From: Amoebophrya sp. A120
Taxonomy: Eukaryota; Protista; Dinoflagellata
DNA: 64,000 nucleotides
Reading direction: 5' to 3'
Assembly: GCA_905178155.1 (NCBI GenBank)
Contig: CAJINV010000017.1
Coordinates: 550,722 to 614,721 of the forward strand
Shown here: positions 13,319 to 64,000 of the stretch, piece after piece
Numbering within the stretch: the first letter of the stretch is position 1
How the letters are laid out: each line of letters opens with the position of its first letter
The notes under the pieces: generated by a model
Told to the model about the DNA's origin: nothing
What the model saw: the letters and a program-made list of their open reading frames with translations, nothing else
Databases searched by the model: none
Position numbers and translations under genes: made by a program

Positions 13319-14313
13319 GCCTTATCTTGCATGACAGATTTGATCATTGCTTTTTCGAAGTTGAGAAGATTTTCTCTTCCACTGCAATTTCTACCAGACT
13401 GATGCAGATGCTTTCGCAGTGCATAGTGCGCATGACGTACTGAAAGTAGAGGATCAGACGGAAATGGACGTGAAAAAGGAGTCACTAGCCGCGGGAACGG
13501 TGGCAGAGTGAGGTGTTGTGTAGTCGGAACACGAAATTGATGTTGCACGGGAGGGAAGTAAAAAGAGTAGAACGTAGAAGAACTGTCGTGGTTTTGCTTC
13601 GTATAAGCCAAAACCTCAAGCTTGATGAGAATACAGAGACTGATTACGACGGATTTCAACTTATTTAATATCTGTGAATGGGTGGCACATGGCACTGGTG
13701 TTGTTGCGGCTACCCCGATATCGCTATTTTCTCGCAGCTAGGAGGGACCTCTGTACGCATACGTAGAGTTGTCCTCGTCGTTCTTTTGTTTGAAATGAGC
13801 TTGCTCCTGCTACCAGGGCTTTACCACAACGAATAAGACCCCACTGGCCGAGGATCATATTCTGAGCAATTTCGTATGAGGCACTTTGAGTTCGAGTTGT
13901 TCTTTCCTACAAGAAATGAAGCGGCTGTGGGTAAGCTCAAGCTGAAAAATGCTGCCGCCTTTCCGTTGATGGATGCGAGTGGCACTACGTGCGCCCTGCC
14001 CGAGAAACAACTGTAGACCAGAGCAGCAAAGAAGAAGATCATCTCGAAAGGAGAGAAGGAGTGATGCATCGTGGCAAGACGATGGTTCAATTGAACCTAT
14101 TACGCGGATTCTGTGAGTATCGTATCGTTGGGAAGACGAGATTGAGGAGGTGAAATTGTTCGAGCCGAAGCACGTAAAGATGAAGAAGAAGACGCTCTGA
14201 ATTCGACCGCCGAGGCAGTCCTCCTAGATGTTAAGATAGAAGATGAATTCGATAGACCGTGCAGGGGAATAAGTACACTGAATGAAGTCAAAACATAAAA
14301 GCACTTAGAAAAG

Positions 14314-20334: not shown

Positions 20335-22487
20335 ATGTTGGTCGCGCGAACAGCCACCGTGAGCAGTTCAGCCCGTTTGGGCAATCGTCTCGTTTCTTCC
20401 TGCTCAAGGGAACTTCCACGACAAGCGTCCGGGTTGGGTGCAGCTTTAGCAGAGCCAACTACATTGCGCTGTCAGTTATACTTTGGCAAAAATTCTGGTG
20501 CTGCCGAGACCTGCAGCAGTGCTTCGAGCAGCAGGCCATCAACCTCGTTGAACACGAGCATATTCACAAAAAATCCCCGGTCTGGTACAACACATAGCAG
20601 GAGATCTCTGGCAACCTTGACGGAAGTTGCGTCCTCTCAAGAACATGATCATGCAAGAAGAGCCACTGCAGAAGACGGAAAATCAAGAACTGCAACGCCT
20701 ACTACACCTGGTGCTGCATCATCGACATCAAGTAGTTTCAGTTCCTCGACGTCCTCCCAGAGTAGATCAACAGCCTCCTCCAACACAGCGGCACTGAACA
20801 AAAAGCTGGATGATCTGTTGGCAGAAGCACGCTATGAAATGTAAAAATGTCTGGGTCTGGGAACTTGTGATGCTGGGTAGCGTCTCATGATGAGGCTACA
20901 AATGCTGGCTCAGCATGACAAGTTTCTGAGCTTCTAGGTGTTGCCTATTCTGCATGACAGACTGCGCTTCTGCATCACAGAAAAACGCAGCTCTGGGGTA
21001 ACGTGCGTGACAGATTTAAGAGTCATGCCAGACAAGCATGACAAACATGAATTCTTCCAGACCCAGACATTTTTACAGTTGATACACGCACACACTTCGT
21101 GCATCAACGTTACGACGAGTGTCTGGAATCGAACCGAACGGTGATAAACCTGTACCGCGAAGAGCATCAAGCTGAGCTGCAGGAGGTAAAGCTACAGGGT
21201 GTAGTTGGAAATGCAACAGGATCCTCGTCCACCGCTAAAGACGCGACCTGGGAGCGCGCCGCCGCGGCGCACGTCAACAGCGCGTTTGTGTGCAAAATTT
21301 TGTGCAAGTTTGAGGAAGGGATGGCCCTGGTGCGAGGAGCGTTGCCTCTGTTCGAACAGCACTACAGCGAGTACAAACGGGAATTCGCTCAGGCGCACGA
21401 TTTGCTCGCGGAATTACTGCTGAACGCGTCACTGCACTACAACAAAGCTGATCCGCAGTCGATGTTGGAAGGACAAACCGGTAGTGCTAGTGCTACAGTA
21501 GAGGAACCTAGTAGTACTTCTGCGCGCGCAGGAGATGCTCTGCGCGAGGCGGAGAAGCTCGTCCTCAAGGCTTTGGAGATCAAAAGCGACTACCTCCCGT
21601 CCGAGCAGAACACGCTGGGAAGTCCCGAGCGCGCAACGAGCTACAACCTGCTCGGGCGGTGTTACGAGCTGCAGGGGGACTTGGGAAAGGCGATGGCAAA
21701 CTACTGCAAAGCGTTCGAAAGCAGTTACGATGGCAGAATGGTATTGAATAACGAGCAGGAGAACCAGAAAAACCAGACGAAGCAAAAGCCCCTCATTCAC
21801 CCCGTTGCGTGCGCGAGCTTGAGCAACTACGCGTCGTGTTTGCAGGAGCAGGGGAACTACGAGGCAGCGATGGGTGTGTACGAACGAATTCTGGAATTTT
21901 TGGAAATAAAGGCTGCCGCGGGCGGTGAGAAGGATGTAGTTGCAGCTGAAATTAGAACATCAGCTACCTCAGAGCAGGGAGGCGGCACTACTTCTACTAC
22001 ATCACAACTAATGAAGCAACAAGAAAAGCAGACGCACATGGAGGCGGAAACCCACCTTGCCCTGGGTGTGGCGGCTATGGGTGCGCGCATGAAGGACAAG
22101 AGCGCCTACCACCTGCAGGTGGCGCTTTCCTTGCACACCAACCTGTTTCCCTCCGGGCTCTCCGGCATGGAATCCCAGCCAGTGCAAAACATTTTGTCGC
22201 TGCTGATGCGGCTGAAGCAGGTGGAAAACACGAAGACGGATTTGGACCAGAAGCAGGAATGGATTGAGCAAGGGCACAAGCTTGTAGACGAGCTCTGCCG
22301 AAAGCAGCAAGTGACGTACGTGGAGTATGCGGAGAAAGAACGACGAGGAAAGAACTTGCTGAGTGTCAGCGGGGAAAGCCGGTATTTCGATCACGCGGGG
22401 CACGTAGGTCACGGACCCAGGGGAGATTCTGTTCGGCTTCGTGCAGACAATTACTTCCTGCCGTCGGAAGCAGAAACGGGCAGATGA
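20335..22487 (+). CDS. TPR-repeat protein with R/S-rich N-terminus (possible organellar transit peptide); one introner intron
   Basis: Exons 20335-20832 and 21090-22487 join as ...LLAEAR|THFVHQRY. TPR-like helices ATSYNLLGRCYELQGDLGKAMANY and ASLSNYASCLQEQGNYEAAMGVYERIL. Confidence 0.8.
20833..21084. mobile_element. Introner/MITE family A, 252 bp, TSD CACGC
   Basis: TIRs TATGAAATGTAAAAATGTCTGGGTCTGG ... CCAGACCCAGACATTTTTACAGTTGATA; CACGC on both sides; removal restores the frame. Confidence 0.92.
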
Positions 22488-23718: not shown

Positions 23719-26700
23719 ATGTCGAATCCTTTCACCCCTGCGCACAGCAACATGGACGTGACTCCGGCCCATAGCATCAATATGGATGTCACGCCGGCGC
23801 ACAGCGCCCTCGCGGACGACGAACTCGAGTTCGTCGACGCCGACCGCAGCGATGTGCACATGGGGGACGAGGAAGAGTTGCAGTTCGTGGATAATCAGGA
23901 GGGCGAACAGGTACTAGAAGAAGATCCTCAACAGGGCGCGGAGCAGCGACAGCACGAGATGAATTTGGTGCAAAACGGCGTGATACCACCACCTTCGGGA
24001 GGTACTACTGGCGGAGATGACGCGGTCCTCGCCGACGAGGTACTACACCCTGCCCGGTCGCGGTCTCACAGTCGCAAAAAGCGGGAGAAGAAGCGGCTGG
24101 AGAAGCAAAACCAGCTGGATTTGCTCCTTCTGGAGCACGAAGCGCTGAGTTTAATCGGCGGTAGCGACGCTGAGGGGCTCACGACTCTGGCGCACCGGGT
24201 GACAAACAAGATCAGGTCTCTCGGGCATCTCGTGCAGGACGAAATCGAAATCCTGGTGCCCAAGACCACACAAGATAACGGGTACGGTGTTTATGTTTTT
24301 TTGATGAAGACGATTCTCTGACTGACGAGAGGACAACAGCGCGCTATGTATTATCCCTGCGACTTCATCTCATCTGGTCGTTTATATTTTTTCTTGCGCA
24401 CCGGCACCGCAAACAAGAAGTACTAGATGTATCTCTCTATTGATTCCCAATATTCGAAACTGAATTTTCCTTGCATGATCGCCAAAAGCAAAGTCTAAAA
24501 ATAACAACGCACAGCAAGCACCGGCGGATGCTGTTCAAGAACGTGCCCGCTTCCCAGCACGCGCTCGCGCTCTCCGAGATTTTGCCGCTGGTTTCCTACG
24601 CATTGCAGAAGAAGCGGGAAGATTCTGGGCGAGAGGAGTACGTGAGCATAAAGAGCAACAACGCGCCAGCCACCAGCAGCACCAGCGCGGCAGCACCTGA
24701 CACGACCGCAGCGGGAGGACCCGCCTCCAGTGCCGGCTCACTCCCGGGCGGCGGTGGTCTGAAAACGCCCGACAATGGGAGCATCGGCGGGGCGGGCGGT
24801 CTCAACTTTCAACAAGCAGGAGGATCTATTACAATGAAAAATGCCCCCACCCCCGAACTTGAAAGCATTTGTATTGCAAATCTTTCCAAATGAAACATTC
24901 GCCCTCTTGCGTGTATCAGCATCACAGAGTTCCGATCGTGAATAGCAAAAATGTGTATTGCAAAAGATCCCAGCAAGAGCGGTGCTTGTCATGCAAGCGA
25001 TGCGAAACACGACTAGAATCTGCATCAGAAAGATTCTTACTCCTTTCATGCATGACAAAAAGCTTTCATTTGGAAACTTCGCATCACAAATTGTTGCAAT
25101 TTCAGGGGTGGGGGGTATTTTTCACTGTGATAGGATCTTCGACATCTTTGCTGGTAAACGAAACGTATCAAATGTAAAAATGTCTGGGTCTGGAAGAATG
25201 CGCGATTTGTCATGCAGCTTTTCCATGACCCATGAGGCCTGGAATGCAGGACCTAGCATGACAGATTCTGCGCGATCTCTCTCATGCCTATTCTGCATGA
25301 GAAACTCCCTCCCGACTTGGTCAAAACTGGACGACTTTTGGTAATTATGCAACACAGATTTTTGCATGCTGCAGATTTAGCATGACAAGTTACATCCTTC
25401 CAGACCCAGACATTTTTACATTTGATAAAACGAGCACCTTTCCAATTCCAGCGAGAGGAGGCACAGCGACTAACCACTCAATAGGCTTCAACAGCAATAT
25501 GCCCGGAATAGATGGTCAACAGCCACCGCTTGACCAGTCCGGCCTCCAGAGCAACCCACCAATACAAGAGCAAAACGCGGGTGGCAGCTTCCGCGATGTT
25601 GATAATAGGATGTCAATGGAAAGAAGTCGGGAGCGAAGCCGCAATCGCCACAGCATGCCCCGACGAGGCTCGGGCGGCGATCTGCAGGAAGATTCGCACT
25701 CTGGAGCGGGGGGCGGCGAGGGCAAACCGCTGAAGGGCGACGGAGATAAACCTTACATCGGGTATATTCGTAACTGTAGGAAATAAATTCTAGAGGAAAA
25801 TCAAAGTTGAAGAGTTACCCACCAACTACTCCATTCAAAAAAATCAAAGTCGAAAGTAATTTTAGTATACTTACGGAATTTACTTGAACGAAAAAAAATT
25901 GCAATTGGAATTCAATATCCTTGGCTCTTTTTCAACATCACAGCAATTGGGAGCGCGGTAGGACTTTCGGCCTAGAGAAGGGCGAAATACAAAAAGTGTT
26001 GACGGTAACTGTCGACAAAATAGGGCTGCTTATCGGTCGAGGCGGGTCAAAAGTGAAAGAAATACAGGAGTCAACAGGTACGGCAAATACGGTCGTGATG
26101 ATTTGATTGTGAAATTGTTGTGGACAAGAAGAAGATATTATAGAAGATTTTTTTCTTCATACGTCATAAAAAATGCAATCTCAAAATTATCCCAGGCGCC
26201 GAGGTCGTGATCGAGCCGACGGACTACCGCACCGACCCCCCTTCCACGAAGGTGAGAGTGACCGGAGCCATCGACAAAGTCGAGAAGGCGGTTGGCATAC
26301 TAGAAGAAATTCTCGCCTGGGCAGCGGCACACCCCCGGGAGGAAGCCGGTATTGAAAAACTGCTACTGTTTGAACGTGGTAGAATAGTAGATTTTTTGTC
26401 GCACAGTTCTGTCTCTGTGCCTTTATTGCAGGAGCAACTTAGTATCGAGATCGACTCTGACACTGAGTTGTTGATTACTTGCAATTACGGCTGCATAAAT
26501 CTACTTTGACCTGCTTCCACTGACCCATAATTTTTGCCAGGTAAAAAAATGGAAGTGAATTTACACCACGTGCCGAAGCTCCTGCGTTTAAGCGCAGTGG
26601 AATACAACGATCAGCACCCGCTGTACCACATCGGCAAGATCTCCTCGAGCATGACCGGCGCCGAAAACTTGAAGGTGATCGAGGAAGAATCCGGCGCCGA

Positions 26701-32704: not shown

Positions 32705-35360
32705 ATGTTTCCACGTCAAGCCCGCCTGGGCTTGTCAGCTTTGTTACTTCTGGCGCCGGAGAAAACTGCTGCTCGCGAAGTGGTTGATGTCGGCACCGAT
32801 GGCCTAGCAACATCCCGAACGGATTGGATGGAGGACGGGTACGACGAGCACTCCCCTTCCGCCCCTGCTGCGGACGCCGAAGGACCGGGAGAAGAGAACA
32901 ATAGGCACCCGTCTTCAGCATCTTTAGCATCCTCGGCTTTTTCGCAAATGCACGGCATCCCAAACTTCTCGACGCCGGCGGATCCCGTTTCCAACACGCG
33001 ACCCGTTTGGGAGGACAAACTGCGATCAGCTCGCTTCGAGGGCGAATGGATGGCGTACGTTGTCAGCACCACCTCGATGGAGGAGCAGCTACTGGGAAGT
33101 GTTACTGTTGACGAGCTGTGGAAACTGCAGGTACTGATAAGAATTCTCCTTGGAGAAGGAAAATGTAGTTAAATTGGAAAACTTCTCATGAACGATTCAG
33201 ACATCAGAACCTCAAAAAAAATTCTATATTATAAATACGTATATATCTGTATCACACGGCTAAACGCTTCACTTTTAAAAACCTCACTTGCTAAAAAAAA
33301 AATTTTTTTTAGTGAGGTTTGACGCTGTTGCTTACAGCATCGGCAGCTACGTGCCGACGGCGGCGATTGCGGCGCCTGCACCTTCTGGATCAGTGGAAGG
33401 ACGACTGAGCCTTGCTTTGGGGGGCAGAGATTGGCTTTTGACTAGTGAAGACGCCACGACTTATAATTCTGAGAGCGAAAGTTCCACAGAGTCTTCATTT
33501 GAGTAAGATGAAAGCAAAAAGTCAACTTTTGTGAACGAAAAAGTGAAAAAGTCGACGACTTGAAAGTAAAATGAATCAAGCGTCATTTTTTTGAGCGTAG
33601 CACCGGCCGAAGAATTCGCAAAAATCCAAAAACTGGCTCCGGGGGCAGTTGATTCATTTTCGCCGTTTTTGGCCACCGTAGAATCGGCGCGAGCTCTCAA
33701 AAGCGAGCACTTTTGAAAATCGTCGAAATGGTGCATCAAAGCGATGCTTTTGCGAAAAGTGCTATGGTTTTGAGGCATTTCTGGAAAGAACATAGGTGGG
33801 ATTGTCATTTGATTCACCTCTCAAAACTGGCCTTTTTTGGTGGCCCGAAAGTGACTCCTTTTTCGAGGCCTTTTGGGTTGGAGCTTAGGCGTGGCTGACA
33901 AACGATTCACCTTCTCGAGGCAGCTGCTTTGCTTTCAGAGATCCAAAAAAACACCAAAAAAAAATTTTTTTTAATGAGTGAAGTTTTTAAGCGTGAAGCG
34001 TTTAGCCTTGTGATAATCTGTTGTAGTTTCGTGGCCAGTCAAGATGTCTGATCGATGCAGCCCTCCTGCTTTATGTACTTCTTGCACGAGAAAGCGTACG
34101 TAGAAACAGAAATAAACTTCTATGCCGCTCAGATACTGAAGCGGAAGTTCCAGCTCCAATTTCCCGGCCTCCTGCTCAATTTCGGCGCGTACCGGTTGGG
34201 CTTGAACGTTTTGAACTTCGATACCGACAACAACTACCGGCTTAGCAACGAGGAGTTCGCGAGGTTTTTTGAGCACCAATTGCAATTGTACCGCGCGCAG
34301 CTGCTGATTTCGTCCTCACCGTCTAACACCACCGAGATGCTGAACACATCAGCCTTGGCAAAAATAAACAACACTAGCATGACGGACGACGCGGCGTTTT
34401 GTTTCTCGCAGTTTGACACGGACCAAATACCGGTTGCCGAGCTTGTCGCCGCGGCCTGTTTGCAACAGTTCCCGGCTGACCCTACGGCAGCAAAGATCAC
34501 CAACGCCACAGCAGGCGACCCGTCGTCGACATTGGAGACGGGGATCAGCAGAACAAAGTGGTCGCTTTCGGACTACAACCCCTTTTCGACGTGCTCCTTT
34601 CCAAGCGTCGCGAGCTGTGGCGAAAATTTGTGTGGTATGAACGGACAAAATACGAGAAAAATCCTGTAATGGCATATAGCTATAGCACTACGAGTACGAG
34701 AATGACACGGGAGGGGACGTCGAGAATGACGCGAGAAGGGTTCTCGCGGGGCTTTGCATCATCATGAAACCCCTTCTTGCCATTCTCCCGAAAAGTAATG
34801 CTTTCACGAGAATGGGACGGCATCGGCATCGGATTTCACGCCAAAACTTAGCCCCTGCGAGAATGATCATTCCCACCCACCCTTTTTCGAGCCCCCCGTG
34901 TCCTTTTCGTAGCGTTGTATGCTATTACAGGAGTTTTTCCCTATTTCGTCCGTTCATATTGTGTGGCATTCGCGAATGCGTGGGGTCTCGTGTGCTCGGC
35001 GCGGCCGAATGGCAGCGCCATAACGAAGAGGTGGATCGCGAAAACGCCCGACGAAAAAAGGAGGAGGAGCGCGATGAGCGCTTCCGAGAGGAAACAAGGA
35101 GGAATGAAATCGGAAGGATTGCCCGGGAGAAAGACAGCGAAAAACGAGAACGGATGAAGAAGGCGTACATCAACCGGTATGGAGAACCACAACCACGGGA
35201 AGAACCACATTGGGATGTTGTGCGAGAAGTCGCCCGAAACGGAAAAGAGCAAAACCCGCAGCAAAGGCGAACTATGCAGGCTTTGAACGTTTTCAGAAAC
35301 CACGAGCAAAGCCAAAACGGGCTGTGGCCATTTTCAAGAGACACCGAGACCGAGAAATAA
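32705..35360 (+). CDS. Hypothetical protein with signal-peptide-like N-terminus, an EF-hand-like loop and a charged C-terminus (3 exons, ~464 aa)
   Basis: Exons 32705-33130, 34061-34635 and 34967-35360 sum to 1395 nt; loop FDTDNNYRLSNEEF. Confidence 0.68.
33250..34015. mobile_element. 766-bp TIR element, TSD ATCTG, inside canonical intron 33131..34060
   Basis: ~60-bp imperfect TIR TATCACACGGCTAAACGCTTCAC ... GTGAAGCGTTTAGCCTTGTGATA; ATCTG on both sides. Confidence 0.88.
34636..34958. mobile_element. Introner family G, 323 bp, 8-bp TSD TTGTGTGG
   Basis: TIRs TATGAACGGACAAAATACGAGAAAAATCCTGTAAT ... ATTACAGGAGTTTTTCCCTATTTCGTCCGTTCATA; removal gives ENLCG|IRECVG in frame. Confidence 0.9.
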
Positions 35361-36170
35361 AAACGAAGATTCAAGGTGGTTTTACTTAAGAAATCAATCT
35401 TTTGATTTGTCTTCGGAAGGTGTAGAGTCAACATTTTCGACAGCGCATCGTGATGAGAAGTATGAGTATCACTGATCGTTATCAGTATAACAAACTTTTG
35501 CTCCATGAAGATCACTCTCGGTGAACAGAGAAGGCCGTCAACGCAGTCTCGTTGTTCAAGAGAGTCGTCCTTCGTGATCGATCACCCACGATCCCGCATA
35601 TTTATGTCTATCAGCAACAGAGATGAACCACGCACACTTTCATCATCCGGTCTTTTCGCATGCGTGGAAGTTTCAACAGCTCTTTCACTATCTGTCATCT
35701 CCTCGTGAATAGATTTCAACAACTCCGTACCTGTTACTGCTAGCCAAGGTCGAGGTCGTGGTGCTGGTCGCCATACTGCTGTGTGCATATTCAGCAAACG
35801 CGCTGCGACAGCGCTTTTGGATTTTGTCGATCACCCGGGGACGTGCAGTACCTAACCTGTCCGTCCTTGACATTTTAAGTAATAATTCACATTCCTTCGG
35901 CCTTGTAGTTTTCTTCCCAAAAATGTTTCGTGGTCCTCGTTCTTTCATTGGATCGACGATCTCATTTACTTTGTCAGATCTTCTGGTTGCGGGTTGAAAG
36001 CGAAAGAGTGATCCGGGCGTTCTTCACCAAGAAAATGCTAAAGCATTTACCAGTGGCTGTCGTGGCACGACCATTTATTCAAATGCGCCTACAGCTCTGT
36101 GTCCCGCGCATAAGTCGAACGTAAATTTTAGCTTGTCCACACACGATCATCGACGCGATCATTTTGAAAG

Positions 36171-39100
36171 ATGTGCTCCTTCTGGTTGACCACACTTCTG
36201 ATCTCTCTCCAGGCCCAACTGGACGAGATCAACCACCACGCGGTCACGCGTGGCCCGGACCTCACGGTTGGGCTGGAATACCAGGGGTTCACGTTTGTAC
36301 ACAATCTGCTGGCGATAACCACCGCTGCAGGGCAGCGGGGAACCGCTTCATCTTCACCGACGACATCTCGTCTTGCTGAAACAGAAAGTGGAAGTAGTAC
36401 CAGCAGCGGCAACATCGCAGATGGAACAAGTGGAACAGAACAACCACCACCACCACCAGTTTCCTCCTACCCGCAAGGCGTAAAGCAGTTGCTTCGCCGG
36501 GCCAACCGCGCGGCCAACAGCATCGAGCCGGAGTTTGCGGACGCCAACGGCCAGCCGATCTTTTACGAGGATGCGGTCCTGCTATTCAACGGCGAGATCT
36601 ATAACTACCGTGAACTGCTCTACGAACACGAGTTGCCGAATCCGGGCGCCACGGAGGGACAGGTGCTGGTACAGTTGTACCGGAAACTGGGACCAGACTT
36701 CGTCAAGCAGCTTGACGGCGAATTCGCGTTGGCAATCGTGGATTTTCGCCTCCTACAGACGGTCTTCGCCACCGACGTGTTCGGCACGAAGCCCCTGTGG
36801 TTTGCGGTCGGCAGGGGCGCGACGAGAACGGGAGGGGCGAAAGCGGGCGAAAGTGGAGAAAGAAAAAGTGCCGGGGGAGAGACGAGAACGAGGAGCAGGA
36901 CCACTCTTAGTACAAGACCATCGATCCATATCGCCACCTACCGCAGTGTGTTGCTGAGGTTGATCGAGCAGCGGAGAGCGGACGCAGTAGAGTCCCACTC
37001 CTCGTCACAGGAAATTGAAGATGCTAAAAGTTCTGGCGCTGGTACTTCTGGAAGTGGCACGAGGACATCAGGCGAGGGTGGTAAGGAAGATGCAGATTCA
37101 CCGGATGATGAACTACATGGTGATGGTCTTGGTCAAGTGGTGGATTTCCAAGAGTCCGATATCCAGCACGCTGAGCCGAATCGCGTAGTCACCTGTCCGT
37201 TCACCGCGACGGCGGACTCGTTTCAAACCCTCTGCACCTTCTCCACGGTGAAGGAGTTCGACTTGCGGCAGCACAAGTCCGACTCCAGCGACTTTGATGC
37301 CGCCTTCGAGCGCGCGGTCTACAAACGCGTGCACGGCCCACCGGGGTCCCGGTTCATTCGGGTCTTCATGGGGCTTTCCACGGGCTACGATTCGGGGGCG
37401 ATCCACCTGGCGCTGGGAAAAATGCAGCGGTTGGAAGGCGTCACAAAAGACACAGGAAATGCAAATGACTTCGGGAAACAAGTAAAGATCAAATCTACAA
37501 AGGATGTGGATGCGGCGCAAACGAAGTCTTCTAGCGCTGGCGGCACTGCAGCTTCCAGTCGAGCAAGCAAAGAGGAAAGAGAGTCTTCATCTCCCTCCAT
37601 CTCAACTAATTCTGCCGGCATTGCAGCTACGTCCTCCGTTCTCGCCGGCGGCAAAATCTTCCCGAACGGGAAGCAACGGGAACGACTGCAAGGCGACGAC
37701 TTTGTGGCCTACGTGATCGTCGACGCCGCCTTCCGCGAAACGCTGAAGCAGCGGATTGCCTACAACAATGTGAACGTGAAGCTGATTTCTAAAACGTGGC
37801 AGAATTTCAAGAAGGAGCTGAATATCCTGCGCAAAAGTGTAATAAGTCGCACGCGTAATATTTATACGTATTAAATTTAAATGCCAGTCTTGCATGACAG
37901 ATTTGGTCGCTCTTACCTGAATCGGCACGACAGGTTTCACTTTTTCTCTATTTGGAAAAAAAAGACATGATACGTATTGGTATTACGATTTAATAGCTAT
38001 TGTGCACTGCATACTGACAACGCTGCAGCAAAAGACCGAGGAATACTTCTACGATGGCGGCAACTGGGCGGGCAAATCGCTCCAACAGGACGCGTCTGCC
38101 GCGCCGGGGATATCCCTGCTGACCAAACTCGCGGCGGAGGACGGCCGCAGAGTCTACTTGTCCGGCAGCGGAGCCGACGAAATCATTTCCGACTACGGGT
38201 TCAATGGCACAAAGTTTTTTCCCCACAGCTCGTTCGGCGGGCGGTTTCCGCCGGACCTGTCCAGCGTGTTCCCCTGGGCCAGCTTTTTCCTGGGCACGAT
38301 GCGCGACTACTTGATGAAGGACGAGATCATCGCCGGGTTTCACGGCATCGAGGGCCGGTACCCCTTTCTGGACTTCGAAGTGGTGCAAGAATTTCTGTGG
38401 CTCCAGGACTCCGTCAAAAACTCGCAGTACAAGAGCGCACTCGCCCGGTACCTGCAAAAACACGCGTACCCGATCGCCTTTGGCAAGCAGGGGTTCGGCG
38501 CCAGCACAGATTTGAAAGTCTACGACCCGCCGAATGGTCAAAATCTTGTTCATCCCGGAGCTGGTGCCGTCGTGGAGCTAGAGCGTGTGACTGCAGCCGA
38601 CGAGCGCGAGCGCGACACAGCTGCAGGAGAAAGTACATCAAGTAGCTCTACTTCTGCAAATATTCAAGCTGACGACGCGCCAACTGGCACTGGTTCTACT
38701 GCTGAGATGCTTTTAGACCCGGCGACCACTTCCGCCACGGCTACCAAGCCACCCACCGGCGACGGTGCTGTCACCTCCACGTTCCTTCAGCCCCCGCCGC
38801 AGTGCGGCGAGAACATGTACTTCGTGGCGCTCCGGAGCCGGTTGACCGCAAGGGTACTGGATGGTGAGGAATTTGGCTGTGCCAATGAGAATATCAAGCG
38901 CGACCGGGAAAACCTTGTTTACATTTTGTGGCACGACTTGCAGAACATGGTCACGAACCTGTTCGGGGAAAAACGCTTCAAGCAGGAATGCGCGATCGGG
39001 TTTTTCACGGCCCGGCTCCTGAAAACCGTAAGTTTAGTGGACAAGAACATGCTGGGCTCGTTGGGAGAACAACATGATCGATCTTCTCCCACGCCGCACA

Positions 39101-40248
39101 GAGTCGATGACAAAACCACTGCAGCCACGAGGACTTCTTCCTCCACTTTCTGGGACGGGCTGCACATTGAGATGCCAGATTTTCGCCTGAAGCACGTGCA
39201 TTTCGGGAACGAGGAAAGATTTGTGGCGGTGATAGAGGGCAAACAACTCATGGATTCCAACGAAATCTGGCACCACGACCAGTTGGGCGTAAGACTGCCG
39301 CCGCTCGTGGCGGAGGGCGGGAGAAGGAGGAGAAGGAATGATGATGATGATCGACCAGGATTTATGTTCTTTCATCGAAATCATCACGCAGATGTCGTCG
39401 GCGAGCGCGACAGCCACAAAAATTCCTGGTCTTCCATTTGCACCTCTGGTTTCCCGGTCTTCCGCGTGCTCCTACGCCTACCCCAGTTGTACGCAAGTGG
39501 CCAGATGATGGATCACGACAGCACGTCGTCAACAGATTCAGATTCTGAGGAGCTTTACCAGCTCTTCGTCGGGAAGTTCGAGGCGTTTTTGGCGCAGGAG
39601 CTATTGCAACATGTAGGAACAACTTCTTCTGAAGTGCGAACAATCATAAGCAACGCGGATGGTGGATATCGCTACCTTCTTGCAGAACTGCTGCACAAAT
39701 TCGATTCCGTGTTCGAATCCTGGATCCAGCAGAACGAGGAAAATTTAGCACAAATACCCTCCGTTGCGGACGCAGTTGACACAGTGCGAAGACTCACCAC
39801 CTCCTCGCGACTCTGTGCACGGGAGGAGAGAAGGAATCAAAACACGATGGACGAGTGGAAAACTGCAGGTGAGAACCACGAAGAGAGGCGGACGTCGGGC
39901 CAGCCTAGTACGGAAGAACAGCAAGACCGCGCAAACAGTATGCGGTCCTTTGATCCTGTGTACTACCTTTTTTGGATGAACACGCGAAGTCAGATTTTCC
40001 TGTCGGAGTTCGAAACGGCAGACGCCGACGTTCATGGTGTTGACACGATGTTAACCGGTGCAGGGCCCTCTAGTGCTGGAACACCTTTTCTTTTGAATGC
40101 TGTCGAATTCTCCCTGGAAATTCTCGACTTTGTCCAAACAATCTCAAACAGCTGGGTCAGTCTGAGTCGCGCCAACCAAATCGTGTCGTTCTGCAATCAG
40201 TTTCTGCATATCAACTATGCCGATGGCACTTGGTGTGATGGATATTGA
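36171..40248 (+). CDS. Asparagine synthetase-like protein (Ntn glutaminase plus ATP-pyrophosphatase domains) with long C-terminal extension; 2 exons
   Basis: N-terminal MC, RGPD, HNLLAI, QPI, FNGEIYNYREL, LDGEFA, DVFGTKPLW, LSTGYDS, LSGSGADEI and RYPFLD; probable GT-AG intron 37839..38028. Confidence 0.85.
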
Positions 40249-41156: not shown

Positions 41157-44100
41157 ATGTCGCGCAATAAGGCGGACGACATTCCGGAGTCGGCGTACTT
41201 CGTGCCCGAGGGCGTGGACGCGATTTACATCATCCGCCGGATGGCGAACTTTCCCGCCTGCCACGAGAAAATCATGGTACCCATGAACTTCCGCGAGAAC
41301 AAATACAACTACACCGGGGCGCACTTCCGAAAAGACATCCAGCGGGCCGTGATGGAGTACGACAAACTGGACTACCTCCCCTCGCCCTGCGTGCGCATGT
41401 GGCACCGCCCGCACACGGAGGCGAAGGACGCCTACTCCGTGCTCTACAGCTCCCTCGGCCGCATGAACTTGGTGACCTCGGACTTCGAGACCGGGCCGGA
41501 GTCCTCCGGGAAGGCGAAGGCCCAGAAGAGCTCCATCGAAACCGCCATCTGGGCGATTGACGGTACGACGACCGTTATCCAGGAAAAAAAGTGTCTAAGT
41601 GTAACTTTCTTCGAGGAACAGCATCACAAATTTGCGCTACATGACAGAGAAAACCTGTGACGCATGGCTTGTAAGGGAAAACACACATGAAAAGAGGACT
41701 TCATGGCTGTCTGGCATGACAGGTGTAACTCTGTTGCATATTCTGCAATACAAGTTTACACTTACACAGTTTTTTTCTTGCATAACCGTGGACGCGGTGG
41801 TGAACGGCGCGCTGCGGTTGTCCATCCAGAGGCAGCAGGACGAGGACAAGGACGCGCAACAGCAAAACGACCCGAGCTACATCTCGGCCAGCGAGAAGCA
41901 GCGGAACCCCAACAAGTTTCTGGAAATTCCGACCGGGATTTTGTCGGACATATGAAATGTAAAAATGTCTGGGTCTGGAAGAGTCATGCTGTTTTTGCAT
42001 GACAAAGAAGGTCTGGCATGGAAGCTCTAGCATCACAGGTTTCGAGAAGCTTCCGCAATGCCGAACCCGCATGAGAAATCCCCCATTTTGGTGCCAGAAA
42101 GTGGGCGCCTTTTGCTACCTATGCATGAGATATTTTTCTGGGTTCTAAAATGCGCATCACAGGTTCGGATCCTTCCAGACCCAGACACTTTTACATTTGA
42201 TAGGACAACGTGTTTCACGACCGCAACCGGGAGATCCAGGACCACTGGAACATGCGGGACATTTTCAACGACTTCGAGAATTTCGAGGACACGAAAACCA
42301 TGGTGCTGATCGAGATCGAGACGCACGGCAAGTCGCTCCGCGTCGACCAATCGTTCGAGCAGATGCTAGAGAACAACACGCACAGCTTCACCGTGGAAGA
42401 CTGGGAAATTGCGATTTACATGGTGCCGCAGAACAAGGTGCACAAGGTACTCGACGGGTACTGGGAGACCCAGGACGAGCTCCTTTCCCCCGGGGAGCTC
42501 CACCGCAAGAAGGTGAAGGAGGAGCAGATGGCCAAGGCCATGGCCATGCAGGAGGCCGCGGAGAAGGAGGCGCAGCGGCAAGCGCGCATTCTGAAGGGCC
42601 TGCCCCCGCTGCCGGAGAAGAAGGAGGGGGAAACCTCCGAGGAGGAAGAAACGCCGGGCGGCACGGGCCCGAACGGCACGCCGAGCGGGCAGGGGTCGTC
42701 CAGCAAGCGCAAAAAGCCAAACGAGAAGAAGGAGTTCAAACGGGGGCTACGCGAGATTGGGCACCTGAAGTACCCGACGCACTTGTCCAAGTGCTACGAC
42801 ACCCCCTTGCTGCGCGTCCTGGACAAGCTGGACCGCACCATCGCGCAAACCCAAAACCCCTACGTCACAGACGGGAAAGTGATCAAGAAGTCCCGGTCGT
42901 TAAAGAACTGCTGCCTATGAAATGCAAAAATGTCTGGGTCTGGAAGGATCCGAACTTGTGATGCGCATTTTAGAACACAGAAAAATCTCTCATGCATAGG
43001 TAGCAAAAGCTGCCCACTTTCTGTCACCAAAATTATCGGGGATTTCTCATGCGGGTTCGGCATTGCGGAAGCTTCTCGATGAAACCTGTGACGCTCGAGC
43101 TTCCATGCCAGACCTTCTGCGTCACGCAAAAACAGCATTACCCTTCCAGACCCAGACACTTTTGCATTTGATACTGCCTCGCTTTGATCAACTTCCACAA
43201 GAAGTTTACCAACGTGAACGCCCTCTCGGAGACCGACGGACTGTCGGCCTTGCACAAAATCACGCTGAAGTTCCTGCTGCGCGGCCGCGACGACCCCGAG
43301 GATTCCATGTCCGAGATTTTCACCGCACTGATGCGGCACCCGTACCTGAATCTGGAGACCCGGGACATGGACGGCGGGAAAACGGTGTTAGAATACGCGC
43401 TGGATGTGTACTGGGGGCAGCTGAAGGCCAACACGGAGCAGACGGGCAAGTCCGCGTCGGGCTTTCCCGAGGAGATCGTGAACATGAAAGACATGCCGAG
43501 AAATAACATCATCGGCCCGGATATGGAACTGTCAGGATTGAAATTAACAAAGTTGAAATAATTTGTGATGCATAAAATCTATACCAGTTGGACCCACAGT
43601 TTCCAATCGGCGCATGACAAATTTTCCTGGCCTCTGAAGCAAGTCTGTCATGCTGTTTAGGGCAAGATGGCTGCTCCCTGTCATGCTAGTCAGCAGCCCA
43701 ATGCTTGACCCTTACCAGCACTAGAATCTGCCTCCCTTGCGCCTTCAGCAATAGAGTCAGTCTCTGTGTCGCATTTTATGCAATACAAATTATTTCAACT
43801 TTGACGATTTCAAAGCTGACGCTTCCATACCGGAAAGGAGATATTTGCGGCACTCCGTGCTGTACGAGCTCTTCGAGCCGTTTTGGCAGCGGGACTCGAA
43901 GATGCGACCGCAGAAAATTAAGCCGTATCTGAAGTGCTTTCGCAACGCGAGGAACGCGTTGGCATTTGCGAAAAGACGGGAAACCTTCTCCATCGACGAG
44001 GAAATGGGTAAAACTTTTTCGTGCTTTTTTGGTTTTCTTTATCAAGAACAGCATCTTGCATACGTAGAAAAAGTGAAAAGAAAGAGAAGCACTTTCAGGC

Positions 44101-45585
44101 ACTAGTACTTGCCAACAACATGATCCAGTTCGAAGATTCGGTATGAAACTTTTAAAAAAATACGAATACTTCAAAAATAAACGACTTCAGATTTCCGTGC
44201 GCGCGAGGCCCGACTGCTGAAGAACCCGAAATTTCTCGACGCCCTGAATGTAACCTGTTCCTGGGACCCGCTGGACCTCCACAATGCCCGGCAGCGGGAT
44301 CGGGAACTGCGGTTCGACGGTCTGGAGATGATTGACTTCATCAAAAACCCGGTGTTCCGCCGCATCCGGAATAAGCAAATCCTGATCCGGTCCTTCCACA
44401 GCCTGCTGTCCCGGTCCCTCGTGGTCGACATCCAGAAGTCCTGGGCCATTCTGTTCAACGACCTGCAGAACGAGACCAACGTGGACGTGCATGCGTTGAT
44501 GGAGTACCCCGACGTGTCGGACGGGAACAACTGTCTGCTACACAAAATTCTCCGCGTCGGCACCGTGTACGACGTTTCCATTGCCCTGACCGGCGAGTTA
44601 TGCATTGCAAAAGCATCGTACTAGTACAAATTGCATTACAAATTTGCTCAGCATGAGAAACAACGCAATTTGTAATGCTGTTTTACCTTAGGAAGAAGAT
44701 TTCTCATGCATATTTGCAATTAGTACGAGTACGATACTTCTGCACAGGATACGAGTGCGCGGTGGAGATGAACTACGAGCCGCTGGTATCCTCAGTAAAA
44801 ACGTACCCACACCAGAGCTGTAATGCAGATTTGCAAAGACAGGGAGACTTGTAATGCGCATCCCCATGAGAGCCATTTCCAATCGTGTTTTGGAATTTGT
44901 AATGCTGTAAACAGGATTAGCAGTTGGATTTCTGATGCAGCTGGCCTTGCGAACCTGCACTACGCTACGGACTGCAGCTTGTGATGCGTGACTCACAAAA
45001 CTCCTAGGCTTGTGTTGCAAAATCCCCATCCTGACTCTGGTGTGGGTACGTTTTTACTCAGGATAGCTGGTGGCGGCGCAGTCGGTCACCAACGAGCAGA
45101 AGCGGGACAAGGAGAAGGAGATGAAGCGGCTCTACGGCGGCGCCGTGTACGCGAAAATGAAAAAGCAGCAGGACCGGGAGGAGAAGGAGAACGCGCTGCC
45201 CTTCTTTCAGTCCTACGTGGACGTTTCCAAGTCGTTTGTGGTGGAGTTCCACGGCAACCGACTGCAGCCCGTGATCGACTGGAGCTACAACGTGATCTCG
45301 AATAGGTTGCTGTCCGGGGAAAAGTCCTCCGTGTTCCTCGGGCTGATCATCGGGTATGTGCGGTCGCCGGTCTATCGAGAGTTGTTCTCAAGCAAGGTGG
45401 GCAGGAGGTGGCTGATCTCGTTTTTCGTGCGATATCGGACCTTCGCCGATTGGGACTCAGTGAACATCAACGGGCAGTCGGTGCTCTCACTGGCAAACGA
45501 TCCGAAAATGGACAAGGAATTCAGGTTGCTCATAAATTCCATCCAACAAAAGTGCATCGCCATGGTGGAAGCCAGGCAGAAATAA
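41157..45585 (+). CDS. Ankyrin-repeat-like protein, 8 exons (~918 aa); 6 of 7 introns are introners
   Basis: Exons 41157-41575, 41790-41950, 42208-42915, 43179-43521, 43835-44007, 44191-44598, 44757-44786 and 45071-45585 total 2757 nt, open frame. Ankyrin-like motifs NVNALSETDGLSALH, LETRDMDGGKTVLEYAL, DGNNCLLH and NINGQSVLSLA. Confidence 0.8.
41576..41784. mobile_element. Introner family D, 209 bp, TSD ACCGT
   Basis: TIRs TATCCAGGAAAAAAAGTGTCTAAGTGTAA ... TTACACTTACACAGTTTTTTTCTTGCATA; removal gives GTTTV|DAVV in frame. Confidence 0.9.
41951..42202. mobile_element. Introner family A, 252 bp, TSD GGACA
   Basis: Family A TIRs; removal gives ILSD|NVFHDR in frame. Confidence 0.93.
42916..43173. 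mobile_element. Introner family A, 258 bp, TSD CTGCC; inverted paralog of 41951..42202
   Basis: Family A TIRs; the internal sequence is a diverged reverse complement of the previous copy; removal gives KNCC|LALINF in frame. Confidence 0.93.
43522..43829. mobile_element. Introner family C, 308 bp, TSD CCGGA
   Basis: TIRs TATGGAACTGTCAGGATTGAAATTAACAAAGTTGAAATAATTTGT ... ACAAATTATTTCAACTTTGACGATTTCAAAGCTGACGCTTCCATA; removal gives IGP|ERRYLRH in frame. Confidence 0.92.
44599..44751. mobile_element. Introner family E, 153 bp, TSD CGAGT
   Basis: TIRs TATGCATTGCAAAAGCATCGTACTAGTACAAATTGCA ... TGCAATTAGTACGAGTACGATACTTCTGCACAGGATA; removal gives TGE|CAVEM in frame. Confidence 0.88.
44787..45065. 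mobile_element. Introner family F, 279 bp, TSD GCTGG
   Basis: 31-bp TIR TATCCTCAGTAAAAACGTACCCACACCAGAG with one mismatch; removal gives YEPL|VAAQS in frame. Confidence 0.92.
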
Positions 45586-46323: not shown

Positions 46324-49300
46324 ATGTTATCCTTCTGGCCCTCCTTCGTTGGTGGCAGTGCGGAGGAGGAGGAAGACCCTACCAATGGCGCAGACACAAA
46401 CTACCCCATCGGCCCGCAGCACTCCGTCACGTCCAATGCGAGTTTTGGTCGACAAAAGTCTGTTTTTAACCCGAAACAAGCGGTCAACACGATCGCGCGA
46501 GGGACGTATTTCATTAGAAACAAGTTTCTGGCGAAGACAGCCAGTATGAAGAACGAAACTGCAACGGAACGCGATACGACCCGGAATATGATCACCAGCA
46601 TCTTCTTCAGACCCTGCTGAATTGGTACATGTTGCATAACACGGAAAATGTCCTAATGTGGTTTAGCGACATTTTCTCGTAGTCGTAGTGTGCGTGGAGG
46701 TGCATACTGATACTGAACCGCAATGAAGTTGTCCACCAATAATAATTCTCGAGGAAGAGGGTGATTTTGCACGGGATACGCGAAATACCAGAAGGGTATT
46801 GCATGGAAGACTACGATTGCGAGTTCATCCTCACAACCTTGCCAGAAGTCTCTCGACTGTATCACGCTGAGTATCTACCGCTGGGATGCGACTGCAGTAT
46901 ATCTAACTTCTACTTTTTTATTTGCTGCAGATATGGTGCCGATCGACACACGTATTGCATGCAAAAATTCCATATTGTAAAAGTGGTTTCCGCCGCCCCT
47001 CCACCCGCTGCAATATTAATTCTGACTCACTTACTTGCACAGGCCTCCTGAAAGTCTACCCGGATGCGGTTCCCCGGGGAATGGACGTGTACTCGCTTTT
47101 GTCCACCATGTACAACAGTAAGTTTTCGTCTTTCCTGCCCCAATTCGGCTGCGACTTCCTTGACGGCGACGACTGCTCCTACGCCATCATTCTGGAGCCG
47201 GCGTATCAAATGCAAAAGTGTCTGGGTCTGGAAGACTGCGAGACTTGTCATGGTTGTCTGGCATGACCAAAAAGTTTGTGATGCGTGTCCAAGAAGAGGC
47301 CCTCCTGCCTGTCATGCAAAAACGCAGTTTGTCATGCGAAAAACGCAACGCAAAGAAGCGCAGACATTTCTCATGCTTGCCTGTGCATTACAGGGCATCC
47401 ACTATTCCCAACGCAGCATTACAAGTTTCCAGACCCAGACATTTTTACATTTTATACGGCCTACCCGCAGTTTATCTCCGTGCCGAATTTCATCAAGGAT
47501 TTTGCAAAACTGAAGCACAACCACGAACTGAAAAACCGGCTGCTGGCGCGGATCTTCGGCAAGTTGTTTTCCTTCTTGATCCTCACCCACGAAGAGAATT
47601 GCATGGGGTGGTTTGACTACGTGAACACAATGTACTTGGAAGCGGGGTACGAAAACTTGAAGTTTTTTCACCTGGGATTCACCCAGTATCGAATCGAAAT
47701 TTGAAGCGACGGTGCACGACTTGCTAGAATCCACATGAAGTAGAAATGCTGACGATGCCTGAGTCGTCGAGGAAGACCCAACTGTATAGCAGCTTCCTTA
47801 CGTAGGTGCAGCTTTTGCCTTGCGCTGATTACTTGCGCTTTGCATTTTTCTGCACGTGTGTGCCGGCTGCAATTTCTTTTTCAATGCATACATCCGATTC
47901 CAACAAGACGAGAATGCAGAAGATCGCGGCCGACTTCATGCAGTGTGCGGATTTGCTAGACAAGATCCTTCTTTTGGACGAAAACCCCGAGAAAATCCCC
48001 GCCGGCCACCCCTTCGCGAAGAAGAAAAAGCTCTTCGGAAGGAGCAACAGTCCGAAAATCGGTCATGGCGGTGCAGCAGCAGCAGGCGGAGCAAATTTTC
48101 ATGCCGGTATGAATTCAGCGGCGTCGCCAGGAGGCAAAGGAAACAAACCAGCTAATCGCGGCGGCGTGATGAAGCGGGACCAGACGCGGCAATTTGACTT
48201 TGCCGGCTTGGAGGATGAGACTCAACATGGCGCAGGAGATTTGAATTTTGGAAACGATCCGAATAACGCGGATCAAATCCAGAATGATTTTGGCTTTCAG
48301 CAACAGGAGCAGAACAACCTGAGCTCCATGATCATCTCGCAGGAGGAAGCGGATGACGGAAACTACGGGGAGAACTTTTACAAAAATCAGCCGCTAGAAC
48401 ATCAACTACCCTCAGATGATGGCGTCGGGAACTACCCATACGGAATGGGTTACGGTGCTGGGGCCAGTTTCGCTGGACAACTTCAAGGGTTTGGAGAACA
48501 GGACCAAACGACGTACGCGTACGGCGCATCAAGTGGTTATAACTACGCGAGCACTTCTGGAGCAAACAATGACTACGGGCATCAACCAGCAGAAGATAAT
48601 TCCAACAGCAACTACTTTTACAACAACCAGTACAACAGCAGCAACTTTTTCCAGACCGAAGGGCAGCACAATGAGGAGCCGGGTTCGGAGCAGGCGTCTT
48701 TGAACGACGTGAACGTAACGGCTGGCTGTATCGAGGTGGAAGAGGAGGAAGCAGAATTGGACTACCCGCACGACAACCTGTTGCAGCACAAATCCTTGAT
48801 GGACTTCCGGAAGACGTTGCATTTCATGACGAAGATTGAAGAAGCGGTGAACCACCCGTTTCTGATCGAGTACGAAGCGAAGAACCGTATCGATTTGCTG
48901 CACAAGCTGTTCAAACGGAACGGGAAGGACAACCTCCATCTGTCGCAAAATCTCTGTGACTCGTCCGTGATTATGGGCGCATTGCAACGGTTGGAGAAAG
49001 CGGAGGAGGCGAAAAACAGTACTAGCGGCCCTGCAGGTGCTTCTGGGGGGAGAAAAAGTACGGGTCTAGCTGCACTAGCCGGGGGGAGAAGCAGCACTGC
49101 CAGTAGTATCAACGCCGCTGCAGGAGCGCTGCAATCACAATCGGTTTTGTCGGTCTATTCTAAAACGAAGTCGGCACTCGGAGCCGGCGTGGGTCGGCAG
49201 TCAACTGTTGGAAAAGTGAAGAGTATGAAAAGTTCGAACCTGAAGCAAATTGAGGAAGAACCCGGAGCGATGACGCGGCGGCAAACGCGCACCACCAGTC

Positions 49301-51276: not shown

Positions 51277-51927
51277 ATGCGCGGTCGAACTCGACCCCCC
51301 AATTTCTTGTACACGGGACGCCACGGCTATGGAAGCGTCAGGTTTGAAATCGTCAGAGTTGAAATAGTTTGTCATGCACAAAGTGCAGCCCTCAAGGTGC
51401 CTGCCTTGCAGAGTATGCAAGTGAGGTATATTGTAAGCCGGTTGTGGGGTAGAAACTGAGCTGCTGAAATAGCATGACAGAACGCGTCTTTCTTACCCAA
51501 ACAGCATGACAGACTGGATTGCGGCTCTGCCCAAATTGGTCATGCGCCACTTGGAAACTGGGTCACAACTTTCATCCATTTTATGCATGACAAAGTACTT
51601 CAATTTTGTCGATTTCAACTCTGAGACATCCATAACGGCTCGGCCGAAGACTCGCGAATGCAATCGTATAATTTTGCGGCGCAAGGATGCGGACGGGAAA
51701 TTAGAGCCGCCTTCGATTATGATGATGAAGTTGTTACGCTCTTCAGGATGTTTAATGATCGCCGCCCCGCCGGCAGAGGAAACATGTTGAGGGGCTCAAT
51801 CCGAGGAACACTCTCCAACAACCATGAAAATAGGTTGTGTCCGGAGTGTAGGTTGAACTTGTTTTACCTGAAGAGCTCAATCACGTCTGGACATGAGTTT
51901 GAAGCTGTCCGCCATGGACAGTCGTAA
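51277..51927 (+). CDS. Possible small gene or gene relic (~112 aa) interrupted by a family C element
   Basis: Removing 51328..51639 joins MRGRTRPPNFLYTGRHG to SAEDSRMQSYNF in frame; no recognisable domain. Confidence 0.25.
51328..51634. mobile_element. Family C element, 307 bp, TSD ACGGC; inverted relative to 43522..43829
   Basis: TIRs TATGGAAGCGTCAGGTTTGAAATCGTCAGAGTTGAAATA ... TACTTCAATTTTGTCGATTTCAACTCTGAGACATCCATA; ACGGC on both sides. Confidence 0.9.
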
Positions 51928-52121: not shown

Positions 52122-52259
52122 TATGGTGTTGCTTTCGTCACGCGGATAGAAATTTGTAATGCATAAATCAGAAACATCGACCACACGCACCTCCAGCCAT
52201 ACATTTTATGCATTACAAATTATTTCAACTTTGACGATTTCAAACCTGACGCTTCCATA
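52122..52259. mobile_element. Truncated family C remnant (intact right TIR, decayed left end)
   Basis: 52203-52259 nearly matches the right end of 43522..43829. AATTTGTAATGCATAAA at about 52151 is its inverted partner. No matching TSD. Confidence 0.65.
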
Positions 52260-56266: not shown

Positions 56267-56491
56267 TATGGAGTTTTGAACCGTTGTATTCTCGACTGTT
56301 TTGTGATTTGTCATGCAAAATTACCTCGACTATCCGCACACCAAGCTGCTTCGGATCGTAAATACTTAGACGGTTAAACAGGCAGAGAATTTTTGCCAAA
56401 TCTGTCATGCGTGACGTGGAAGGCTCTTTCTATCACTTGCGTCATTACAAATCATGCAACAGTCGAGAATGTAACATTTGCGAATACCATA
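56267..56491. mobile_element. Degenerate TAT...ATA TIR element, 225 bp
   Basis: Inverted core ATTCTCGACTGTT...TGATTTGT.ATG at both ends; termini TATGG/CCATA; flanks GACTA/GATGA (3 of 5 match). Confidence 0.65.
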
Positions 56492-62719: not shown

Positions 62720-64000
62720 GAGGCCTTTCGCTGTTTCAACGCCGTGAACATCCGCGGCAGGCCGTACTTGCGACTTGCGGAGCTGCACACCGCACTGCAA
62801 GCCGTGTCCGCCAACCCGGTTTTCGATCAACTCCGGTCGAAGAGTCACAGCTTCTTCCTATGGATTGCAAAAATGTCTTGCAACTTGTCATGCTGTCTTT
62901 GGATTCCAAAAAAATCTGTATTGCGTGACCAGCAACAGGACTCCAGTTTGTGTTACGCGGAGAGGGCATTTCTCATGCGGAATAGGCATCAGCAAGCCCT
63001 GTAAAAATCTGTGATGCTAGATCATGCATTACATGCGTCGTGGATCATACGAAAGATGCATCACAAATTCCGGAATCTTCCAGACCCAGACTACATTTTT
63101 ACACTCGATACTTCCCCTTGCTGTGCAAGGCGTTTCTGAACGCGTCCGCTAACCGGGACCAACAGTGCTCCGCAGCGGACTTCGAATCCTTGTTGGAGTC
63201 CTTGTCCCTGACCCAGTTGGACGCCACGAACATTTTCCGGGCGTTCGTGCAAAACGACTTTGCGAGTCTGGACGTGTGGAGCTTCATCAACTTGATCCTC
63301 GGAGCTTTGTGTCCGTCGTTAATCCTGGAGGAGTTTCTGAACAACGATTTGTTGTGTGAAACCCTGCAGAATTTAGCCACCTGGTACTACAAACCGTTCA
63401 ACTTTGAGGAGTTTTTGAATATGTGCCAAAACTGTGGGATTTACGACAAGCGCGCGGTCCAGCTTTGCTTTTTGTTTCTGGACGTGGACAACAGTGAGCA
63501 GGTGTTTGCGCGAGAAATTCTCACCGCGTTCCACATCAAGCGGCAGCTGGCGCCGGGCGGCTCGGAAAAGAGCAGTAGTAGCAGGAAAAGACAGGGTACT
63601 TGCCGACAGTTGAAGGAAGTTGTTTTTTCTTATTTGAATGACAGAAAATCAGGCAGCACTATACATAGGAAGTTTTCGAACCTCGTTGTGTGCAAAGAAT
63701 GCGAAGTCCGGTAGTTCAAACTGTGCAGCTCTGAATAACTGCATTAAATAAACCTGCTCAGGTCAAACCAACCGCGCACGGCAGATGATTGCCGAGTCGC
63801 TAGGCAAACAATTTGCCGGGTGTTTTGCCAAGGCGGATCTGCTGAAACGGGTGGTGAAAGCGCCGTGGTCTGCTTCGGAGCAGGAAGCGGTGCAGGGCGG
63901 TTTCAAGACGCTTAAACGAATCCAGACCGGAATTCCCGTACCAAAACCGAAGAGAAAGGACGAGGACGAAGACGCCCCCCCGCCCAAACCCGGGTTCCGG
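62720..64000 (+). CDS. EF-hand-containing protein, 5'-incomplete, runs off the window
   Basis: Frame EAFRCFNAVNIRG...SHSFF|PLLCKAF after introner removal; EF loop FLDVDNSEQVFARE; GT-AG intron 63596..63761. Confidence 0.68.
62859..63110. mobile_element. Introner family A, 252 bp, TSD CTTCC, decayed left TIR
   Basis: Right end CTTCCAGACCCAGACTACATTTTTACACTCGATA; left end TATGGATTGCAAAAATGTCT; inverted relative of 25166..25427; removal restores the frame. Confidence 0.85.

Follow-up and report, generated by a model that had tools for sequence, protein, structure and literature searches.

Introner removal in Amoebophrya appears blind to orientation and behaves like a fixed 5-nt ruler from symmetric ends

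Introners of Amoebophrya sp. A120 are very probably removed from genes irrespective of their orientation, and their removal behaves like a fixed 5-nt ruler applied from symmetric ends. We analysed a stretch of 64,000 nucleotides of the A120 genome (the window) and loci of a related genome. The elements are introners already known from A120, and what is new is the quantified orientation-blind, ruler-like removal. The text of Farhat et al. (2021, PMC7789003) describes the A120 introners as non-canonical, with inverted repeats (TAT, 7 nt, A-tract) and direct repeats of 3–5 nt, and calls their mechanism unknown. The elements of the window had the same TAT-N7-A-tract repeats, 5-bp direct repeats and repeated families, with family 0 making up 100 of 249 catalogued elements. 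In the open-access literature searched, supplementary figures of PMC7789003 and survey datasets aside, there were no counts of the orientation of Amoebophrya introners relative to the host gene. The text of PMC7789003 uses "orientation" for gene order only and contains no ruler argument; "strand" is absent from its main text and "antisense" from its supplement text. The filter described in PMC12130899 demanded same-orientation similarity, and that in PMC9860276 allowed both orientations. According to PMC12005148, elements of the A120 type are confined to part of the genus.

Two family 0 elements lie in opposite orientations within one gene. Element A (41951..42202, + strand, 252 nt) is in the family 0 reference orientation, and element B (42916..43173, − strand, 258 nt) has its interior inverted relative to A. 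The alignment of A with the reverse complement of B had 232 of 258 columns identical (90%), in agreement with the earlier note, which had taken the two for diverged reverse complements. Direct alignment of A with B (176/286) was no better than that of A with its own reverse complement (173/282). Both elements begin with TAT, end with ATA and carry terminal inverted repeats of ~30 bp (41951..41981, reading TAT, 7 nt and A-tract, and 42172..42202 in A), with 28 of 30 end positions complementary in each. Exact 5-bp target duplications flank them, GGACA at 41946..41950 and 42203..42207 (+ strand) for A and CTGCC at 42911-42915 and 43174-43178 for B. In the whole 64-kb window, 13 TAT...ATA segments had an exact 5-bp repeat and end complementarity of at least 11/20, compared with a mean of 0.8 in shuffled sequence (maximum 3; 30 shuffles).

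The host gene (41157..45585, + strand) is conserved in A25 and has 918 codons after six TAT...ATA elements and one canonical GT-AG intron (44008..44190, + strand) are taken out. Besides A and B, the elements are at 41576..41784 (a different family, with an exact 5-bp duplication), 43522..43829, 44599..44751 and 44787..45065, the last with a 30-nt exon upstream. The coding exon between A and B (42208..42915, + strand, 708 nt, 236 codons) translated into a sequence with 100% identity to the annotated A120 protein P0001 and 54% to the A25 protein P0002. Taking out the element plus 5 nt at both A and B reproduced P0001 through both junctions and aligned without gaps to P0002, and in the ortholog alignment it outscored removal at −1, +2 and +8 nt. 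Thus A and B, despite their opposite orientations, both need exact removal for the conserved protein to be made. The earlier note had placed them in one gene and stated that both excise in frame, which is borne out by DNA, annotation and orthology. Over the first 737 residues, the 918-codon frame agreed with the A120 model, and it showed no gap against the A25 protein at the seven junctions. P0001 (745 aa) enters the element at 44599 and stops inside it; removing 44599-44751 and 44787-45065 gave 918 aa, and the A25 ortholog has 914 aa. This early stop is likely an annotation miss. A Pfam search assigned the protein to no family, and an Rfam search of 41400-45200 gave 0 matches at E ≤ 0.1, hence no match to a group I or II intron or a ribozyme.

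To count orientations, we scanned 17 of the 64 parts of a sequence collection with the end pattern of family 0 and obtained at least 154 loci, all in contigs with the assembly prefix JACKZZ01. One JACKZZ01 exon was only 92% identical to its A120 counterpart, so the source is, judging by sequence, a close relative and not A120 itself. The catalogue comprised 249 distinct elements (234 in these loci and 15 in the window) with an exact or one-mismatch duplication. Host strand and frame were called by a codon model for which 5000 codons of the window served as training data; the strand was called for 185 of the 249 elements, with 64 omitted. Where both flanks were called independently (n = 104), the strands agreed in 104/104 cases and the frame was continuous after element-plus-5-nt removal in 101/104. 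Pfam matches occurred in 12/70 flanks on the called strand and in 0/68 opposite-strand controls.

Family 0, including A and B, had 35 sense, 37 antisense and 28 uncalled copies (confidence interval 0.37–0.61), and family 1 had 19 sense, 15 antisense and 8 uncalled copies. The sense-versus-antisense count proposed in the earlier note, run here on the loci of the close relative and the window, therefore showed no strong bias. The ratios were 18:14 and 11:6 for families 0 and 1 in the strict set, and 33:35 and 18:14 when window copies were left out. Eleven Pfam matches at family 0 copies, RNA polymerase large subunit among them, split 5:6 by orientation. Both orientations were present in 12 of the 13 families with at least two called copies, and the pooled data showed no bias (p = 0.54). 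Retention of the element would disrupt the reading frame in 96/100 strict cases.

Three further pairs within the window had been listed in the earlier note as similarly inverted, and all were, at 72–73%. Family 1 copies at 20833..21084 and 47204..47456 (the latter with one mismatch in its duplication) are inverted relative to each other, and the family 0 copies at 25166..25427 and 62859..63110 are oriented like A and B, respectively. Codon scores placed the host on the + strand at these four sites and at 43522. The element at 43522 is the inverted relative of 51328..51634, and for this pair the sense/antisense assignment did not stand, because 51328 showed no coding signal (codon score 2.6 vs 1.8) and its host strand was left uncalled. 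All open reading frames of at least 250 codons in the window were on the + strand, which fits the co-oriented gene blocks described for Amoebophrya A120.

The window and loci also held less typical elements. Unusually long copies at 27176-27698 (523 nt) and L073:1033-1528 (496 nt) may contain nested insertions. A 766-nt TAT...ATA element at 33250-34015 had an exact 5-bp repeat and another end type, with neither the internal motif described below nor clear coding flanks. At 13247-13425, 29931-30397, 52184-52259 and 56267-56491 the elements were older or incomplete, their repeats decayed or only one end present; of these, 13247 still restored the frame. The segment 1511-1952 was 95% identical to contig JACKZZ010005808.1 (loci L129 and L130) in non-element sequence; family elements adjoin it there and do not in the window, and the match may reflect a repeat or site polymorphism. 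No clean empty site was found at 1684-1952, despite a 95.5% match to L129. Very short exons separated adjacent elements in the strict set of loci (8, 21, 22, 27 and 30 nt), which limits how any removal machine could work.

The element ends were alike on both sides. The arms of A and B begin with TAT, 7 variable nucleotides and at least three A, and positions 11–14 were A in 84–98% of the arms of 185 elements. Most elements were 100–350 nt long with a 5-bp target duplication, a MITE-like size and structure. In these 185 elements, no difference was found between 5' and 3' arms in the host sense; strand-biased 2–5-mers did not exceed chance, and neither the target duplication nor the target site showed a base preference. 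These results support the inference in the earlier note that recognition depends on symmetric features. Its argument from strand-specific spliceosomal signals to recognition of the stem does not follow: with inverted repeats, the 5' and 3' sequences are the same whichever way the element lies, so orientation-blindness alone does not exclude the spliceosome.

A and B both have the rarer G at position 4 of their 5' ends despite their inverted interiors, and this common G raised the possibility that the outer arm bases follow the polarity of the host gene. The idea was rejected: of 32 positions compared in 106 family 0 and 1 copies, just two differed, position 15 at p = 0.014 and position 30 at p = 0.04, and neither was significant after correction. 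Positions 4, 5, 7, 10, 14 and 15 of the family 0 and 1 arms each took two states in free combination, with 70 haplotypes among 284 arms, which suggests that sequence is exchanged between the ends.

The spliceosome was weighed against these data. According to the text of PMC7789003, no U1 snRNA was identified in A120 or A25, and A120 keeps nearly all spliceosomal proteins together with U2, U4, U5 and U6. GT-AG or GC-AG ends could be reached by sliding in only 11/185 elements, so the elements generally lack U2-type ends; A can be read as GA-AG, and B has no GT-AG, GC-AG or GA-AG reading. Co-option of splice sites from the duplication was rejected on this count and on the lack of base bias in the duplication. 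The branch-point-like YTRAY, which may not be the host's own consensus, occurred in the last 60 nt of 22/185 elements in sense and 27/185 in antisense. A conserved UUUU at −14..−11 of the 3' end could be used as a pyrimidine tract, and conserved A residues also lie near that end.

Frame tests fix the removed length modulo 3 only, except at junctions checked against orthologs. By this measure, elements with decayed duplications still restored the frame, in 15/15 cases with one mismatch and 6/6 with two or three, indicating that identity of the repeats is not needed. Two loci bear on the join itself. In the duplication of L033, comparison with the A120 ortholog speaks for the upstream letters at positions 1–2. 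At 37823..38013, an older element in an asparagine-synthetase-like gene (36168-40248; GATase and Asn_synthase domains; deposited model of 1293 aa), the two duplication copies disagree at position 5, where the deposited gene model retains the downstream letter. The join would then fall inside the duplication; if these two loci, one of them a gene model, are general, the cuts lie 1–3 nt before TAT and 2–4 nt after ATA, in arbitrary host sequence. Such a join points to a ruler from the ends and argues against the ordinary spliceosome, which has an active-site preference for fixed terminal bases.

A modified U2 spliceosome is a tentative alternative, the next in likelihood after the non-spliceosomal machine proposed below. 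New proteins would replace U1 and read UAU..AAAA at the 5' end and UUUU..AUA at the 3' end, and the core would tolerate arbitrary terminal nucleotides. The inverted repeats supply these end sequences in either orientation, the A120 spliceosome described in PMC7789003 is nearly complete with U1 missing, and the host gene of A and B itself contains a canonical GT-AG intron; the conserved UUUU and A residues close to the 3' end also fit. A precedent exists in Fritillaria (PMC11282704, PMC13326754), where introns are MITE-derived with inverted repeats and duplications, like the A120 elements. Those introns are described as favouring AG-AC or AG-AT ends, unlike the A120 elements, which retain no preferred dinucleotides, and the U2 spliceosome of Fritillaria is conserved and includes U1. 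The similar frequency of YTRAY on the two strands, the lack of 5'/3' asymmetry in the arms and, if the join lies within the random duplication, the absence of a fixed base at either cut would also count against a modified U2 spliceosome.

Insertion phases, read on the sense strand where TAT begins, were 24/53/23 in the strict set (largest phase 53/100, p = 1.6e-4). The skew was present on both host strands and in all family groups, with no target motif. A join 4 nt into the duplication would make it the usual phase-0 excess. Where the two copies of a duplication differed by a single mismatch, the change was synonymous in 16/26 cases, against 0.38–0.46 expected with one copy free (p 0.013–0.08). 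Both signals could be accommodated by a join position differing from molecule to molecule or by repair at the DNA level, and both are weak or open to other readings.

Repeat-guided removal offers a further alternative, in which a polymerase or repair-like step skips the hairpin and realigns on the 5-bp direct repeat. Such microhomology would make use of the exact 5-bp repeats, which were found in 217 of 267 end-to-end copies. It is highly improbable in view of the decayed repeats that still restore the frame and of the downstream letter kept at position 5 of the 37823 duplication, since a polymerase jump would keep the upstream copy. Two elements (34636-34958 and L064:364-643) have flanking repeats of 8 bp (5+3) instead of 5 bp, and +5 removal would leave one extra codon; they form a natural test of a ruler versus repeat-guided removal.

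The element interiors share a motif with the core TGTVATGC. B carries four copies in one direction (42957..43096, + strand; element positions 42, 73, 130 and 172) and A five copies, all opposite in direction to those of B. The core occurred 857 times in 249 interiors and 12 times in shuffles, and the motif was present in 185/185 strand-called elements and common to 28/30 sequence clusters. A weight matrix gave 1324 vs 18 hits, with 2 hits in 9098 nt of exon and none in the GT-AG intron. The text of PMC7789003 does not mention this motif and reports that no cognate autonomous transposase was found in A120; integrase-like ORFs are described in some A120 introners (PMC12130899). A role of the motif as a strand-specific RNA signal was rejected: copies in the sense and antisense directions numbered 370 and 333, and the 26/185 elements with a one-directional motif work both ways (14 sense one way, 12 the other). 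The first copy lay mostly 33–34 or 41–44 nt from an end, and copies were spaced by 30–33 nt in 17 of the 25 clusters with at least two copies, with a preference for 31–33 bp. Such a distance corresponds to about three helical turns and suggests that the motif is bound as double-stranded DNA; it is a candidate site for a common mobiliser.

Ciliate internal eliminated sequences are removed precisely and in either orientation, leaving one copy of the duplication, and they are cut from DNA in the somatic nucleus. Amoebophrya is not known to have a somatic nucleus of the ciliate type. Removal of the A120 elements at the DNA level would require a domesticated transposase-like enzyme, bound to the motif with its helical phasing, that cuts a transcribed copy of the genome with a stagger of 5 nt. 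The full two-fold symmetry of the elements, a removed length of the element plus one duplication, the cross-family motif with its regular spacing, the lack of a wobble signature in the RNA stem (see below) and the synonymous excess would all fit. We regard it as very unlikely: elements were present in both DNA assemblies examined, duplications with three mismatches keep the frame, which is hard to reconcile with overhang religation, the synonymous excess is weak, and Amoebophrya is not known to have a germline/soma split, of which the open-access literature searched made no mention.

In predicted folds, A and B both formed a terminal stem of ~30 bp (z −5.9 and −7.0) and differed in their inner hairpins. 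Mismatches in the sense-strand stems showed no excess of G.U (121 vs 151 A.C; 57 vs 84 in families 0 and 1), and thus gave no sign of RNA-level selection on the stem. Compared with shuffled arms, pairing of an element's own arms was barely higher for families 0 and 1 (p of about 0.06), higher for families 3 and 4 and lower for family 2. Recognition of paired ends is plausible from the modelled folds, and proteins reading the end sequences would fit equally.

The earlier note had suggested that A and B could pair with each other in the pre-mRNA. Our in silico folding favoured such a duplex (−412 kcal/mol vs about −200 for two separate folds), and the predicted equilibrium fold of 41931-43193 was the A:B duplex, with an outer stem that keeps a TAT/ATA end. 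Cross-pairing of the terminal stems did not depend on inversion, as A5':B3' and A5':A3' had the same predicted energy (−44.3). Pairing of A with B might cause the 708-nt exon to be skipped, as that note also proposed, or to form a circle; a product lacking the exon would be in frame and free of stops. Same-family neighbours less than 500 nt apart were less often inverted (3 inverted vs 8 direct) than those farther apart (8 vs 3; Fisher p = 0.09). Skipping at a detectable level is possible on the modelled energies and on balance unlikely: the exon is conserved in A25 and retained in the deposited model, and A may already have folded and left the transcript by the time transcription reaches B. 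Within 1.6 kb, 11 same-family neighbours were inverted and 11 direct, so no overall depletion of inverted neighbours was found, and the lower share of inverted pairs at close range is no more than a hint. Exons between elements were multiples of three in 21/46 cases, close to the expectation from the phase skew alone.

We consider that the elements are removed at the RNA level by a non-spliceosomal machine that reads two-fold symmetric ends and cuts at a fixed distance outside them, with a probability of about one half. The machine would read TAT-N7-AAAA and its complement, likely in paired form, and would cut inside the duplication, 1–3 nt before TAT and 2–4 nt after ATA and 5 nt in all, so that both splice-site dinucleotides would be arbitrary host sequence. 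The reaction itself might be endonucleolytic cleavage followed by ligation, a mechanism already proposed for the nonconventional introns of euglenids. Insertion would be the work of a cut-and-paste transposase bound to the phased internal motif on DNA, and for removal the element interior would be a passenger. The orientation counts (35:37 and 19:15), arbitrary junctions, tolerance of decayed duplications, the missing U1 and the Euglena precedent argue for this reading. The lack of a selection signature on the stem, the near-complete spliceosome, the U2 precedent of Fritillaria and the UUUU near the 3' end argue against it.

Euglenid nonconventional introns (PMC12501133, PMC11282704) resemble the A120 elements in their terminal inverted repeats, direct repeats at the junctions and lack of GT-AG. 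They are described as probably non-spliceosomal, with cut sites a few nucleotides outside a paired signature, which resembles our reading of A120; PMC12501133 reports a stem with measured spacers in Euglena. The predicted folds of A and B had a stable stem joining the intron ends, as in euglenids. The euglenid signature N3CDG...CHGN5-6|R was absent, as positions 4–6 of A and B are not CDG for any start 1–3 nt before TAT. Euglenids are an unrelated lineage, in which circles of excised introns have been reported. Introners in two orientations have been described before (Huff 2016, via PMC10228655), and those of Aureococcus and Polarella are reported to be spliceosomal and functional in both orientations (10.1101/2020.10.14.339549). 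Like the A120 elements, they are DNA-transposon-derived introns. Their GT/GC/GA-AG sites come from the duplication or the element, whereas the A120 elements show no site requirement; their simpler two-orientation classes have a stated bias to one orientation, in contrast to the absence of bias in A120-type elements.

How non-canonical introns are removed in A120 and A25 is a published question, which these findings narrow: with 50:50 orientation, random junctions and a 5-nt ruler, the cis signals needed would lie within about 15–30 symmetric terminal bases. The internal motif common across families offers a route to the mobilising protein, which is still missing. If removal is at the DNA level, tens of thousands of transposons would be deleted from A120 genes, a programmed genome editing outside ciliates that would so far have been read as RNA splicing. 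If it is non-spliceosomal, it would represent a second origin, beside euglenids, of such nuclear intron removal. Precise excision blind to sequence and orientation, if true, would make transposon insertions nearly harmless and would explain the invasion of the genome by these elements.
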